From: Octopus vulgaris
Lineage: Eukaryota
DNA length: 64,000 nucleotides
Assembly (NCBI GenBank): GCA_951406725.2
Contig: OX597833.1
Span: 25,792,001 to 25,856,000, forward strand
Reading direction: 5' to 3'
In this document: positions 6,325 to 31,661 of the stretch, one piece after another
How the letters are laid out: every line of letters begins with the position of its first letter
Position numbering within the stretch: the first letter of the stretch is position 1
Program-made: the position numbers and the translations under genes
Notes under the pieces: generated by a model
The model's database searches: none
Told to the model about the DNA's origin: nothing
The model's input: only the letters and a program-made list of their open reading frames with translations

Positions 6325-7885
6325 ATCTATCGTATAATGGAGAAAACTGCTTATTAATAAGACATGCAACAATTACTAAAAGAATGCAATATTAAAAGCT
6401 TGACAGTCTGGAAAAATTCATGTTCTAAGAAATTGCCTATAATTTCAATTTCTGAATTCTCGCAAATTCTCGCAAATTTACATATTCATTGCATTCACTG
6501 CGTTCAATTCTTCCTAAATCTAATATCCATTGCATTCACTGCGGAGTAGATTTTAATGTTTAATAATAAACATTATTAATTCGTTGCAGGCAGTAATTTA
6601 TGTTTTTATTTGCAACAGTTTGTCATTCTCGCTCGCATCTATTTTCATTAATGATATTTTAATAATAGTTCTATGCCTTTGATACGAGTCACAATTTCAA
6701 GAATATTATCAGTTTCCGGAGTTTGTAAAATTAATATTTTTGATAAAATGAAAATTCTTTCTCTTTAAAATGAAGTTATTTTGTTGGTATGGGTACTTGG
6801 AACGCTATAAGCCTTTCAATAATAACTATGTGGTCGCTACTATTTCTAGCACGCAGAACAAGATAATTTTTAACGAATTTTGATTTATATGTAATATGCG
6901 ACTGAAAAAGAAAATTTAGCAGCAAAGGCACAATGGCAGAAAGAAAGATGGGCAACTGAATCAGATGAAACCAGAGCAAAGAGAATTAATCAGATGCCTG
7001 AATATACACAGAATTGTAAACGTGATTCTGTTTCCACTACACAAAATAATGGTGTCAGTTCACAAATTGTTGATGCAACACTTAAATATATCTTTTCTTT
7101 GCGATTATGTGGAAGTAGTGGAGTTAACAATCAATCTAAGACTTCTTATAGAAAGTCATTCTGATGAAAGAGGGTTTGCTAATTACCTTCTTGATGTACG
7201 AAATGGTAACATTTCTGTTGAACAAAACTTAGGTGAATTCAAAATAAAACTACCCGATAACCCTTTTACCTGAAAGTGGTATTCTTTCAGATCTAAGTCA
7301 TTTTATATATGGTGACCTCAAAAATAACTTCACAATCCCTGTGTGGCTTGCAAATAGAACCACCGTTACTCCATTTTGTGACTGATTTTCTGTTGACCAG
7401 GATCCCTGGTAAGTTAAAAATATATAGCTGATAATGAAACTCTGTACCCAATCGAGTTCATCAACATACTAACGCCATCAGAGTTTACACTACACATTCT
7501 CAAACTGAAGAAAAGACGATGCATAATGCTTCTGAGAAATTTAGATGCTACTAAGGGACATTGCAATGGCACACGCTACATCATTGTCAGTTTACAAACC
7601 AGCTTTTGCCTTGACGTGCAAACAAGGCACAAGGACAGACTATTTAACAAATTGGAATATATCTTCCGACACAATTCTTCTCACATGGCCAGCTGTACGT
7701 TGCGTTATCTAGAGGTCGAAAGAAGGCTAATATTGGCTGAAAAATGGAAGCAGTATGATTACTGACAACTGTGTCTACAAGGAGATACTATATATCTGTA
7801 TGGAATAAAATCATTTCGGCATATTTCAAAACATGCTGAATGAATAATATTGTTATATGAGATCATTTTAATTTTAACAGCTAGC
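6325..7885 (+). mobile_element. Helitron relic (Pif1-family helicase C-terminal fragments)
   Basis: Interrupted frames over about 7060-7790 give TINLRL..FANYLLDV.NG, PIEFIN.LTPS..H.LKLK, MLLRNLDATKGHCNGTRYII, FSHGQLYVALSR and VYKEIL. Outer boundaries (TC at about 6325, CTAG at about 7881) are tentative. Confidence 0.85.
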
Positions 7886-19376: not shown

Positions 19377-19465
19377 CTGGTGTTTCCTTGGAGATTTCTT
19401 ATACTTTGTAATAATTAGAATATCATCAAATAGAAAGAGATAAGCATCAAGTGTTTTGGTTGTTT
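19377..19465 (-). CDS. PLEKHG7: PLEKHG7-like exon (PH), (E)TTKTLDAYLFLFDDILIITKYKKSPRKHQ
   Basis: tttccttccag|AA ... CAG|gtatgt; 89 nt, phase 1-0; RhoGEF-PH motif YLFLFDD.L.ITK. Confidence 0.94.
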
Positions 19466-19923
19466 CTGGAAGGAAATGTAAGAAAAATAAAGAATAATTG
19501 CAGAGTGTTATAATGGATTGCAAATATAACCTCAAGCTCTTCTTTATAACATCAATCATAATTAATGGCTCCGGGAGCCACATGTGGCAACAAGAAATAC
19601 TTGAATAAAATTATATGCACTGATTTATATTTCATTTATATTTCTAGCGTAAAATGTTTGTGTGCATGACAGCAAAAATGAATAGACACACACACATACA
19701 CATATATATAAAACAAAGCTATTTTATTCTACACAGGTAGAAATATAGCAAAAACAAAACAAATAGAAAATGCACTTTTAAAGAGAACCGTTTTCACAGA
19801 TATTTCTTAAAAATTAGAAAATAATTTGAACGACACCTAGTCCATTTTTAATTTCTTTTATACATACATAGATACATATATAGATACATATATAGCTATC
19901 CTGTCTATATATGGATATATATA

Positions 19924-22463: not shown

Positions 22464-22518
<55 letters not shown>

Positions 22519-22722
22519 TGAAGTAGACAAATGAATTATCTAATACGGATAATTCAAATGATAACCGATACCTGGGTAGCAAAAATCACAACAGAAAAAG
22601 CACGGTTGAAGTTACGACCATGGGGCATAAAATCCGTGCCTTAGTGGGAAATTTGAAGTTTTATATATTAAGTGTAGGAAGAAGTGGAGCTGAACGAAGA
22701 TTTAACAAAATTCCTTTTTATT

Positions 22723-22808
22723 ATTTTCTACATATGTTTCGAAGGCTGCAAAGTCCCTAATTCGGATTGAATAAGGAGTTCATTTTGCAGCCTTCTCTTC
22801 AGGAAAAT
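22723..22808 (-). ncRNA. Type-I hammerhead ribozyme (intact core), sense to host pre-mRNA
   Basis: Exact reverse complement of 22963-23048. Confidence 0.85.
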
Positions 22809-22962
22809 GCAGGAACTTAATTCTCCAACAAAATGCACAGCAAGCTTTTCGACAAACGCTCACGAGGAGCCCATGAACTAAATGACCACTTATTTCATGG
22901 GCTCCTCGTGAGCGTTTGTCGAAAAGCTTGCTGTGCATTTTGTTGGAGAATTAAGTTCCTGG

Positions 22963-23048
22963 ATTTTCCTGAAGAGAAGGCTGCAAAATGAACTCCTTAT
23001 TCAATCCGAATTAGGGACTTTGCAGCCTTCGAAACATATGTAGAAAAT
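22963..23048 (+). ncRNA. Type-I hammerhead ribozyme (intact core)
   Basis: attttc-CTGAAGA-GAAGGCTGCAAA..TTTGCAGCCTTC-GAAA-CATATG-TA-gaaaat: 6-bp stem I, 12-bp stem II closed by G-C, palindromic stem III ACATATGT; predicted cut after A23042. Confidence 0.85.
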
Positions 23049-23099
23049 AATAAAAAGGAATTTTGTTAAATCTTCGTTCAGCTCCATTTCTTCCTACAC

Positions 23100-23143
<44 letters not shown>

Positions 23144-23153
23144 CATATATATA

Positions 23154-23233
<80 letters not shown>

Positions 23234-23604: not shown

Positions 23605-23698
23605 CGATGAGCGATAATTGTCCTTCATGGATGAGTTGCCTCTTGGGACATGTCAGCAGCTTCTCACAGGGTTGTTTCTGTAACATGTGTTTCATGAA
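23605..23698 (-). CDS. PLEKHG7: PLEKHG7-like exon (start of PH), FMKHMLQKQPCEKLLTCPKRQLIHEGQLSLI
   Basis: ttgcttctttcag|TTC ... ATC G|gtattt; 94 nt, phase 0-1; PH beta1 motif R.LIHEG.L. Confidence 0.92.
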
Positions 23699-24470: not shown

Positions 24471-26269
24471 TATCATATAAAAAATAATTCTTTGTGAGAA
24501 GAAATGATAAAAAGTAAAACCAAAATCTCCCAAAAACTTCATTGTATTCTCTGATAAGAAAGGAAATGAAAAAGATATCAAGCTGATTTGTGTAGTGGTC
24601 ACAACATATGGAACAGTGAAGATTGGAAAAGAGCAGCAGCAGCGGGAAAAGGGATAAACACAGAAAGTTATACAGGAGAGCTAATGTAGTAAAAGGAAAT
24701 GGTAAGATATATATATATGACGTTAACCACTTTGCTTTCAGTTCTTCCTTAAACACTCTTTAATTTTTCTATCTCTCTCTCTCATTGTGTTTCTCATGAG
24801 TGAATTGCAATAAAGAGGCATAGAGAATGAGAATCACACATGATAAAAGAATCTTGGATAAAGAAGGAGGGAGCATGGTGTCGATAGTGCAATGACTAAT
24901 TAATATATGCAGTCACATAAAGAGTTCATTATATAAAAATAATCTTCTTAAGTGATCACCTAATACAATTTACAGGGGATACGAATAATTTATTACTGTG
25001 TTTTTCTCTCTCAGTTTAATTTAAATCCAATCAAGGAAATTATGGATTTGCATTTACTGAAATATAAAGGACTAAACAGGCGTATATTAACACAATATTA
25101 ATTTCTAAATTACTAACGGCGTGTTTAGAAGGATTACAAAAACGAATTCATTAATCTTGTAGTTTATAATTCGTGCTGAAATCTCAAAATTACCGAATAG
25201 TGTTACTTCGAAAAACTAAAAAAAACTAACAGGGCATCATCAGGTAATATGCTGGTATGTATGTATGTATGTATGTATGTATTATGTATGTATGTATGTA
25301 TGTATGTATGTATGTATCAATCTATCTATCTTTATTTATTTATTTGTTATTTACATACATAAATATACATAAATGAGTTAATATATTTACATTTGCACAT
25401 TAAACAAATATACATTTATAAATGCACCTATAGATGACCCTGTTCCAATACTAAATCGGGGTCTACTTACACAGTAATGATAATATTTTTATTAAACGTG
25501 CAAATGTATTTTTTTCTTTTTTGTAACATCTCCACAAACACGTTGTATCGATACTTTAGTTAATCTAATACACATAAGATCGCGGGTCGTAAATCAACGT
25601 AACGCAGTTCTGCAACGAGTTTTTCTTTTCCCTCCGCCACTCCACCGGTTCCGTTACTGAACATCCTGGCATCAATAAAAGTGTAACTTAAGCCTTCCAA
25701 GATAGGGTGTATGAAAGATGAGAAAGGATATTTCCTCACATTGCTATTTAATATTCGACATAGATCGACAAAGATGATAAAATGATGTCAAGGACTTCAG
25801 AAATTCCAATAATTCTTTTCATAACTGAATTATTTCGAAACACAATGTGTGACAATGATTTTATTCTCAACTGATCTAATCTCATAGCATCGACACTTCT
25901 TAAACAGGACTAACAAAGGATTAATTACCAGAATAAACAGATATGATAGAAAGTCGATCATCTGGAATATTCACGTTGATTATCTGATTCTGTTTGTGAC
26001 TTGTATGGTTGTTTCAGTTGTGAGTGACAATTGTGTACACATTATTTTAATTAGCCTTTCAATAATATTGAACACTTCGGAAGTTGGAAACGTGTTCTTA
26101 CACTAAAATACCAAAGAACGGTCAATATCAACACATTCTTACTGTCTGAATACAAAATTTATATATAAAAAAAAAATAGGAATATGTATTTTATTTAGCT
26201 CTAAAATCATAGTTTCCTCAGGCAGGTTACAATTTTCTCCAAACATCATTATATATATATATATATAAT

Positions 26270-27243
26270 CAAAATAAGCAGCAAGAATGACTCCGGTAAT
26301 TTGGTACAATTGTTTCGCACTACATCATTTTATTAAAAGTTGTAAGTATTACAACAGATTTAAGATGCTGAGTGCTCATCAGCCAATTAAATATGTTTTC
26401 CATTAACATAAAAGCTTTCAAATCAAGTAGCAACATTGTAGAGAAGGTAGATATGCAGACAATGATGTAGATTTAAATTTTAAGAACATATGAGGTAGTG
26501 AAGTCCAACCACTGACTGACCAAGCTATAGCTGTTTTTAACTGCTATAAGGTTAGAAGTAATAAAGATTTTTTAGTTGTAGGAATGGGGTAAAGGAGGTT
26601 TCAGAATACTGTAAAAAGAATTTCAAGTTGAAGACAGTAATTGCAACAAAATGCCAATTACTGCTATTTGGTGAGAAACTGGGTCAATGTCAAATGGTCA
26701 TTAATTCCCTTTACAGAGAGTAGAGAAAAACCTATTACTCATTATTATGAGTAGGCATAGTATTTTATAACTGGGGAAATCTTTATTAGTTTTAAAACTA
26801 GATTAGATTTAGAAAAAATTCCAAGTTCAAGTTTACAGCGAAGTTTTCTTAGTCATCTATGAAAGTTAAATTGAAAGCTAGTATAGTATATTTCTTAATA
26901 TTATTTTAATAAAAAGTTAAAATTTGAAAAATATAGGAATACTCGCAATTTTTATGTAAAATATTTAAACGTTCGGATTGTGGAATGTATACAAGATGCT
27001 CCCAACTCCAGACGATTATTTAACAGATTTATATTACTCTGATGTTTTAAAATTTCATAAGTTTCCATAGAACAAAGTTGACAACCTTCCCTACTATTTC
27101 TATAAGGTTTCGCCCTTCTAACTATATCCCATTTTAGGTTGAATCCTATATTGTTTGTTTTAGTTCCCAAATTTTGCTAGATAGTGTTGTGCAACCTGCC
27201 TTATGTTTTAGTCTAAAAGAGGAAAAATGATTGTTAAAATGTC
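26270..27243 (-). mobile_element. Penelope-like element 3' fragment (GIY-YIG endonuclease C-terminus and 3' region)
   Basis: RHFNNHFSSFR...TTLSSKIWELKQ, then a frameshift to LKWDIVRRAKPY...CQLCSME.YEI...LLNNRLEL...CIH; hammerhead at its 3' end. Confidence 0.85.
26301..26386 (-). ncRNA. Type-I hammerhead ribozyme (intact core)
   Basis: Minus strand ttgg-CTGATGA-gcact...agtgc-GAAA-caattg-TA-ccaa; palindromic stem III ACAATTGT; predicted cut between 26305 and 26304. Confidence 0.8.
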
Positions 27244-27317
<74 letters not shown>

Positions 27318-29544: not shown

Positions 29545-31661
29545 GACTAGAAGTAGTGCGTGGGAAGCAACCAGATCTAAGATTAACTAATGCATTGGTG
29601 AGTAAATTGGAAGGGCCCAGGGCCAGATTCAGTTCAAGGGTACTGTCTAAAGAAATTCAGTAGTTTATATGGGAGGTTGAGGGAACAGCTTCAAGATTGC
29701 CCTAATGGAGGAATACTACCAGATTGGATGATTAGAGAGAGGACCATACTTATTATGAATGACAAGAGTAAGGGTAATACAGATAGCAACTATTGACCAA
29801 TCACTTGCTTACCATTAATTTAGAAGATATTAACAGGAATACTTTCGGACAGTGTTTACTAGAACCTTGACAACCAGGATTTACTACCAGAAGAACAGAA
29901 AGATTGCAGGAAGAAGGCTAGAAGAAGGCATTATCTATTATATATAGACAAAGCATTTCTAAATGAAATAAGAGCTAGAAAGAAAAATCTAGCAATAGCA
30001 TGGATAGATAATAGGAAGGCCTATGACATGATCCCATACTCAGGGATAAGTGAATGCTTGGGTATATTTAGTGTACCAGACAACATAAAAGAATTAATTA
30101 GCTTTAGAATGAAGAAATGGAAAGTAGATCTCTACTCACGTGATGATTTCTTAGGGAAAGTTAATATCAAAAGAGGAATTTTCCAGGGTGACTCGTTGTC
30201 CCCTTTAATATTTGCCTTACGTTTGATTCCCCTCATTTTAGTATTAAAGAAGTTATCAATTCAGAAATTGTAACAGAAAAATCAACCATTTGCTGTACAT
30301 GGATGATCTGAAACGTTTTAACAAGAATAAGAAAGAGATAGATTCCTTAATAGAGACTGCAAAACTCTTTAGCAAAGATATAGGCATGGAATTTGGTATA
30401 GATAAGTGTGTAATATTAGTAATGAGAAGGGGACAGGTAGTCAACAGCGAAGTCATCCAATTAAAAGATGGCCAGACATTAAAATCATTGAAAGGAGAAG
30501 AGAGTTATAAGTATCTAGGAGCATAAGAATTTGACAAAGCATTAACTACAGAAATGAAAAGAAAATTGAGGAGTACATCAGAAGTGTGGGGAAGCTATTG
30601 AAGTCAAAGCTGGATGATCCGGGACAGCATCATTACTTAGATACTCAGTAGCTCTTGCAGATTGGGCAAAAACTGAATTAGCAAAGCTAGACGGAAAATC
30701 TAAGAAGGAATTCAATATGAACGGAGGACTCCACACAGTGGCAGGTGCAGCAACATTATACCTACCTCGGAATGAAGGTGGAGGAGGTTTAATATCAGTA
30801 CAAGACTGCGTGGAGTAAGCTAGAGTAGATACAGTCTCCTATGTAGGTAATAGTGAAGGAAGTTTATTAAGAGCTGCTAGAGCCACAGTAAGACATAGAA
30901 AACCTAAACACTAAACGAAGTTAAAAACCAGAAAAAAGAATAGAAATTATCTGACTGATAGGAGAAGGCGTGGCATGGTTGATTTCCACAGGAAGTTTCA
31001 GCAAATAGTACTGATGGGATATGGTTATAGCTGCAAAAAGGAAAGCTGAAGAGGGAGACAGAAAGTTTGTTAGTAGCAGCACAAGATCAAGCATTAAGGA
31101 CTAATTGGAAAGAAGCCATGATAAACAAAAAACTAAGTAGATTCCCAATGTAGGTTATGCAAATAAAAAAAGGAAAGCGTTACTCAAGAAAAGACATGAC
31201 AATCTAGGGAGAGCAAATTATTAGGAGCAATGTAGAAAACTGATAAATGGTATGAACATGAGCTTAGTAAAGCACTAGCGTAATAGAAGCTAGAAGACCT
31301 GATGTGATAAAGAGAATAGAAAGTGTCAGATAATTGACTTTACAGTCCCAAATTATGAAAAAATTAATCTGAGAAGTATAGAAAAGATAACAAAGTACCA
31401 GGACCTAGAAATTGAACTACAGAGACTATGGAAAGTGTTGGTAAAATGTATCACAGTAGTTATAGGTGCATTGAGAACTATCCCTAAAGATCTGAACAGA
31501 TGGACAAAGGAAATAGGCATAAAACCTAGTTTAGTACAGCTCCAGAAAACAATGTTATTAGGAACAGCTAGGATATTTAGGAAGGTTATTGGCATCTAAG
31601 GTTACTTGTTGTAGTCCGATGTTAGGATTCTTTAGTTTTCAACAGTCTAATCTGATGTATT

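Follow-up and report, generated by a model that had tools for sequence, protein, structure and literature searches.

A mirror-image pair of hammerhead ribozymes in an octopus PLEKHG7-like intron as a probable by-product of head-to-head Penelope-like insertion

An intronic 216-bp hairpin of Octopus vulgaris that carries one hammerhead ribozyme on each strand is best read, with a probability of about 0.9, as a young, 5′-truncated copy of a Hydra-type Penelope-like element in a (TA)n tract, its two halves likely having been joined head-to-head during insertion, so that the hairpin is a by-product with no regulatory job in the host. Elements of this kind are well known, and the locus is one of their ordinary products. 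In what follows, the window is the whole 64,000-nt stretch of DNA that was analysed; its features are collected in Table 1. The host is a PLEKHG7-like gene on the minus strand, for which nine exons were placed by tblastn, one of them 98% identical to PLEKHG7-named proteins of Octopus bimaculoides and O. sinensis. The element lies in a 4.1-kb intron (23604-19467), and the original prediction had correctly put it about 500 nt downstream of a PLEKHG7 exon (the exon ends at 23605 and the next starts at 19466). A contig of run X7, guessed to be RNA, contains the upstream exon followed by letters matching the next exon, and, since it crosses from exon to exon, the intron was spliced in that sample. 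The O. bimaculoides protein P0001 is without both exons that flank the element, which may reflect an isoform or an annotation gap.

Table 1. Coordinates of the insertion, its parts and neighbouring features in the window.
Feature	Position	Strand	Basis
(TA)n run beside tail end, target site	22497..22517	.	
Whole insertion: 5′-truncated Penelope-like element in two head-to-head parts	22518..23103	.	BLAST with L064
Family tail, 144 nt, single-copy here, outside the hairpin	22518..22661	-	
Left arm: 3′ part of pLTR, sense in PLEKHG7 pre-mRNA	22662..22885	-	inverted repeat, motif scan
Type-I minimal hammerhead, sense in pre-mRNA, predicted cut between 22729 and 22728	22723..22808	-	
Head-to-head junction (palindrome centre, three mismatched pairs)	22878..22893	.	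arm comparison
Right arm: 3′ part of pLTR up to pLTR end, antisense in pre-mRNA	22886..23103	+	
Type-I minimal hammerhead, predicted cut after 23042	22963..23048	+	
(TA)n run beside pLTR end, target site	23104..23231	.	
PLEKHG7-like exon upstream of element	23605..23698	-	tblastn with P0002; run X7 contig record 32
PLEKHG7-like exon downstream of element, PH-domain piece	19377..19466	-	tblastn
Hammerhead of a second Penelope-like family, sense in preceding intron, internal control	26299..26388	-	motif scan

The inverted repeat (22662-22884 / 22887-23109) is the longest among those listed for the window. When 22662-22877 was compared with 22894-23109, the arms differed at 2 of 216 positions (pairs 22684/23087 and 22809/22962), exactly the 214/216-bp repeat that had been predicted. 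What had been taken for a 16-nt loop is instead the degenerate middle of a head-to-head junction without any loop: the central 16 nt of the palindrome hold three additional mismatched pairs, and the remaining 416 nt of the arms hold two (P about 7e-5 relative to the mismatch rate of the arms). Error-prone joining, mutation at the hairpin tip or base-calling error are possible origins of this cluster; a templated source was also sought, and the best match, of 9 nt, was unconvincing.

When both window strands were scanned for a motif made up of CTGANGA, a stem II of 4 bp or more and GAAA, three sites emerged, namely the two hammerheads of the hairpin and a third at 26382 on the minus strand. Both arms contain the type-I core (CUGANGA, GAAA, UH) with stems I-III, each arm reading stem I ATTTTC/GAAAAT, CTGAAGA, a 12-bp stem II with a 31-nt inner hairpin, GAAA, CATATG and TA. 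One complete hammerhead per arm and per strand is therefore present as anticipated, and the cleavage positions given by the original prediction agree with the sequence as predicted cuts. The search with hammerhead models that it proposed gave nothing in its favour: Rfam returned no hammerhead match over the window at the gathering threshold or at E<=10, the matches at E<=10 being below-threshold ones alone, chiefly to miRNA hairpin models. The call thus rests on the motif scan and on a covariation test. The core pattern was found in the pLTR of 43 of 46 ORF-bearing loci, across subfamilies down to about 62% protein identity, with stem III variants (CATATG, CATGTG and CACGTG) that all self-pair at computed duplex energies of -8 to -12 kcal/mol and with a cleavage triplet that is either GTA or GTC. 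Among 15 representatives, which are mutually related, 89% of cells pair, two-sided changes occur in 6 of 31 pairs and stem III is paired throughout (100%). The observed covariation score was reached by none of 500 shuffles, and the remainder of this control was mixed, 49/500 shuffles reaching the two-sided pair count and 228/500 the pair-type count. Such compensatory changes indicate that the hammerhead is probably maintained by selection on the element, and the self-pairing of stem III in every variant supports the dimer-type hammerhead with palindromic stem III that had been proposed.

The Penelope-like origin put forward at the outset was borne out by ORFs with RT and GIY-YIG domains, by the arrangement of pLTR and tail, and by the hammerhead. 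In five of eight fetched regions the element has an ORF of 891-934 aa (stop-to-stop) with YRDD and a C-terminal YIG domain, that is, a single ORF combining RT and GIY-YIG endonuclease as in EN+ Penelope-like elements; pLTRs from partial tandems, an inverted 5′-truncated copy and a tail at one end were found as well. In a feature search with the ORF, the matching clusters were annotated as GIY-YIG (31-50% of members) and RVT_1 (18%). Pfam gave no RT or GIY-YIG match on the element ORF, and searches of PDB sequences and of a phage collection gave no match. The family is large: an exact 26-mer had 126 matches in the genome and a degenerate 24-mer, at no more than one mismatch, had 2,190, the reversed control having 0. 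Open frames near 900 aa are kept in many subfamilies, and the family ORFs (L064, L068, L103-L118) carry Asn-rich stretches between RT and endonuclease.

We then compared the family with the Hydra clade, for which PMC8557442 (Craig, 2021) gives DKT, absence of CCHH, CxxC/CxH, RWK, CxCX5C and (TA)n targets as criteria. DKT (for DKG) is present in 15 of 21 family ORFs, the remaining six being shorter (116-762 aa); CxxCxxE is found in 21/21 and CxH in 19/21, and there is no CCHH within GIY-YIG. At the position matching RWK the family has RWL, and RW[KR] occurs in 0/21 family ORFs versus 97/120 database homologs, almost all of them unnamed proteins. The CxCX5C linker before the endonuclease is likewise absent from all 21 (one of which does not cover the region) versus 116 of the 120 homologs when a relaxed CxCX5C pattern is used. 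By its protein motifs and its insertion into (TA)n the family fits the Hydra clade, and since the linker is missing we call it a Hydra-type, linker-less variant and no textbook member. Hydra-clade elements, for example Penelope-13_HM and Hydra-1_Obim, as described in PMC8557442, share with it the C-terminal GIY-YIG, DKT without CCHH, CxxC/CxH around conserved E and N, (TA)n targets and a hammerhead near the 3′ end. Unlike them, the octopus family has RWL rather than RWK, no CxCX5C and an ORF of about 900 aa with Asn-rich stretches; its element measures about 3.6 kb (Hydra elements being mostly <3 kb), its tail 144 nt versus the 30-40 nt of that paper's general description, and its hammerhead sequence differs from the one given there for Hydra-1_Obim. 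That a family without the Zn-finger linker, which has been proposed to steer insertion towards microsatellites, still inserts at (TA)n, as judged from the genomic copies, is the mildly new point here. An assignment to Neptune was considered and dropped after the Hydra motifs had been tested. A non-LTR retrozyme was ruled out, the copy being head-to-head and the family ORF-bearing and without head-to-tail non-coding units, as was a MITE or DNA fold-back transposon, given two different ends and a junction that differs from copy to copy.

When the natural full-length copy L064 was aligned to the window by BLAST, it matched 22884-22516 at 94% and 22886-23109 at 96%; the right end of the insertion is ambiguous up to 23109 because TA letters are common to element and flank. 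The hairpin portion of the predicted inserted unit stands, and the 144-nt tail that carries the insertion to 22518 had been missed. In tandem copies the tail continues into the 5′ UTR of the following unit and its ATG. In this family ATATATA stands at the pLTR end, adjoining the (TA)n target, and (TA)3 borders 64 of 67 element ends versus 515 of 5000 random 20-mers (a background of about 10%); target-site duplications are unreadable within (TA)n. At 22571 on the minus strand the tail bears a donor-like CAG/GTATCG that is unpaired and sense within the host intron, and tandem copies (L067, L093, L102) have a matching AG about 68 nt after the donor-like site in 3/4 copies, which on sequence makes the two a candidate 5′ UTR intron. 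The insertion is young, as had been surmised: among 1,449 first-look candidates genome-wide, the closest sister copies are 98-99.5% identical to the arm, and both arms have an A at 22991 that is found in none of 87 other aligned arm copies. This private variant, shared by the arms and absent elsewhere, means that the arms came from one source copy or were later homogenised.

The head-to-head layout proved to be routine. With the 26-mer, the 100 matches listed, out of 126, fell into 78 clusters containing 18 head-to-head pairs and one tail-to-tail pair. The first 100 of the 2,190 matches of the 24-mer, all mismatch-free and from contig C1 and the start of C2, grouped into 73 clusters; 22 pairs within 1 kb were head-to-head, 17 of them spaced for two whole hammerheads, and no tail-to-tail pair was present. 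Single and fold-back copies were told apart at 47 non-redundant loci (60 fetched minus 13 duplicates of the same place), where 26 were two-part and 21 single within a 3-kb locus; two whole hammerheads were present in 7 of the 47, the window counted. Thirty of the inspected loci came from the arm search and were ranked by full-length identity, which makes that part a biased sample. Among the two-part loci, 24 of 26 combine a pLTR end with a tail end, the other two being unclassed and none a pair of the same kind; among the 46 ORF-bearing loci the same holds for 17 of 19 two-part cases, with one tail plus tail. Among single copies the two sites are used about equally as ends (10 at the tail, 11 at the pLTR). 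At the junction most two-part loci are asymmetric, and at six the parts do not overlap. If 15-23% is extrapolated to about 1,600 loci, such hairpins may number a few hundred. Head-to-head pairs also occur in the second hammerhead family. The predicted order, antisense copy first whichever strand is transcribed, is thus confirmed as a layout, and because head-to-head pairs are routine across the genome it is generic family geometry, not special to this locus.

From these end patterns we infer twin priming at two fixed start sites, one per target strand. The element endonuclease would nick both strands of a (TA)n site, after which one target 3′ end would serve as primer for reverse transcription from the pLTR end of the element RNA, and the other from its tail end; both cDNAs would terminate early, at this locus nearly at one base, before error-prone repair joined them end to end via a few complementary bases. 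Halting of both cDNAs at a near-identical base would leave a loop-less palindrome, and the geometry of two-strand priming would, with no need for selection, put the antisense copy ahead of the sense copy whichever strand is read. The hammerhead would serve to cleave tandem element transcripts, likely as a dimer through the palindromic stem III. More tentatively, and at somewhat less than even odds, each of the two fixed start sites may be used once per two-part insertion, with TA-rich letters of the RNA start sites directing (TA)n homing without the linker. If this is true, hundreds of ribozyme-bearing long hairpins, many of them intronic, would feed ADAR and small-RNA pathways. In LINE-1 twin priming the second target strand primes internally, at a variable site, and the inverted 5′ part is joined by microhomology, the parts barely overlapping. 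In the octopus family, by contrast, neither start site varies, and the parts frequently overlap and so give hairpins.

The closest competitor, which we regard as unlikely though of some weight, is snap-back self-priming, in which the tail-end cDNA folds at a short self-complementary end and copies itself up to the pLTR end. The window locus taken alone, with its symmetric junction and both arms ending at the same place, fits this equally well, as does the private A at 22991 in both arms; one shared template RNA or source copy, however, accounts for that variant just as well. The palindromic junctions of Adineta vaga Penelope elements are interpreted as self-priming on an antisense template in PMC3846280 (Arkhipova, 2013); these elements resemble the octopus family in head-to-head pLTRs, junction palindromes, a tail at one end only and Asn-rich ORF inserts. 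Against that paper's preference, the asymmetry of most octopus two-part loci, and above all the six whose parts do not overlap, lie beyond fold-back copying and favour two primers. Priming on both target strands also has a counterpart in the Anolis Poseidon element PAc (PMC11167929; Frangieh, 2024), whose protein cuts and extends both strands in vitro, whose two start sites bound a tail and whose hammerhead likewise lies in the pLTR. PAc belongs to a different clade, and its start sites are non-homologous to the cut DNA, whereas the octopus pLTR end is ATATATA beside (TA)n.

Mirror-image hammerheads have been described in Penelope elements before. PMC4209133 (Cervera and De la Pena, 2014) reports hammerhead pairs on opposite strands 100-700 bp apart, and the supplement of PMC8557442 has a 5′-truncated inverted copy of Penelope-13_HM with the same hammerhead on both strands. 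The minimal hammerheads of metazoan Penelope-like elements in PMC4209133 are also type I with a long stem II and a short palindromic stem III; relative to those motifs the octopus version differs by its 12-bp stem II, which holds an inner hairpin of 31 nt. How tandem and inverted structures form, and the bias towards microsatellites, are listed in PMC8557442 among the open questions on Penelope-like elements. The present family, young, high in copy number, linker-less and strict in its pairing of pLTR end with tail end, would allow both inverted ends and microsatellite targeting to be tested, and as a rule of thumb, in such genomes, hammerheads paired on opposite strands within (TA)n can be read as the ends of Penelope insertions. 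Among non-subscription papers, searched by title or start of abstract, none was found on octopus Penelope hammerheads, on twin priming in Penelope elements or on editing-gated intronic hammerheads.

Within the host pre-mRNA the copy would form a 216-bp duplex that is removed with the spliced intron, and its ribozyme would likely be silent. The co-transcriptional masking put forward in the original prediction is indeed what folding models predict, the nascent core pairing with the antisense arm at P 0.96-1.0; by computation the hammerhead fold costs about 111 kcal/mol in the full hairpin versus 2.6 in a single arm. This difference invites the idea that, in sense introns, fold-backs outlive single copies thanks to silencing of their ribozyme by the antisense arm, no switch being involved, and the preprint 10.64898/2026.07.22.740005 reports tandem retrozymes to be under-represented in Xenopus introns. 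We consider it improbable. One intron upstream, the hammerhead of the second family is sense, has an intact core and is without an antisense partner within the window, which suggests, from this one example, that single sense copies need no muzzle. In PMC4209133, moreover, single minimal hammerheads show no detectable cleavage and dimers cleave at a low level, and the Anolis hammerhead in PMC11167929 required the element's own protein. The upstream copy itself is about 1 kb long and truncated (26249-27252, minus strand; 2,057 first-look candidates for its family), with the hammerhead palindrome ACAATTGT, in PLEKHG7 intron 27870-23699; a relative, L130, has a CxCX5C linker and a GIY-YIG-like end.

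Much further down in probability comes the dsRNA-gated switch of the original prediction, taken as a host-selected device in which ADAR or a helicase would free the sense hammerhead so that the PLEKHG7 intron is cut. The sense copy does have an intact core and does lie within a real intron, and the duplex is a likely ADAR substrate because squid show widespread editing of intronic and UTR repeats (PMC9068888). The energy gap nevertheless persisted when editing of 10-50% of adenosines was simulated in six runs per setting with the six essential ones spared, mean gaps being 96-109 kcal/mol with inosine treated as G and 60-98 kcal/mol (minimum 50.6) with inosine unpairable. When the essential adenosines were not spared, all six remained untouched in 53%, 18% and 2% of molecules, the last value at 50% editing. 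A second sense copy of the hairpin family with which a dimer could form was found nowhere else in the window, the insertion is young and the layout is common genome-wide, and the switch is very unlikely. The A>G differences in run X7 (22610 and 22991) are found in DNA runs too and are thus family variants, and a T>C at 22982, seen in X7 only and in one contig, is not assignable to the window locus.

An equally faint prospect, that the palindrome is an artefact of assembly or of a chimeric read, could draw on the mismatch cluster at its centre and on the fact that none of the listed contigs bridges the junction, yet contig graphs collapse palindromes, so a missing bridging contig is expected, and two interior positions distinguish the arms, which finish at two different family-specific ends, equivalent layouts with other junctions occur at many loci, and fold-back junctions, some with short inserted letters, are present in short-read contigs of three other runs.

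Further elements were noted during the analysis. Unrelated hammerhead-like motifs occur in the flanks of L041, L046, L066, L067 and L124, so that several hammerhead families populate the genome. On contig C6 (11312870-11313404; L096-L098), a unit of about 255 nt with the hammerhead 3′ motif stands three times in direct tandem, resembling a small retrozyme-like array derived from the hairpin family. In the window, broken RT-like and endonuclease-like frames of another non-LTR element were recognised by eye at 29863-31599 on the plus strand, and frames at 6920-7765 on the same strand resemble, also by eye, what we take to be a Helitron-type helicase.
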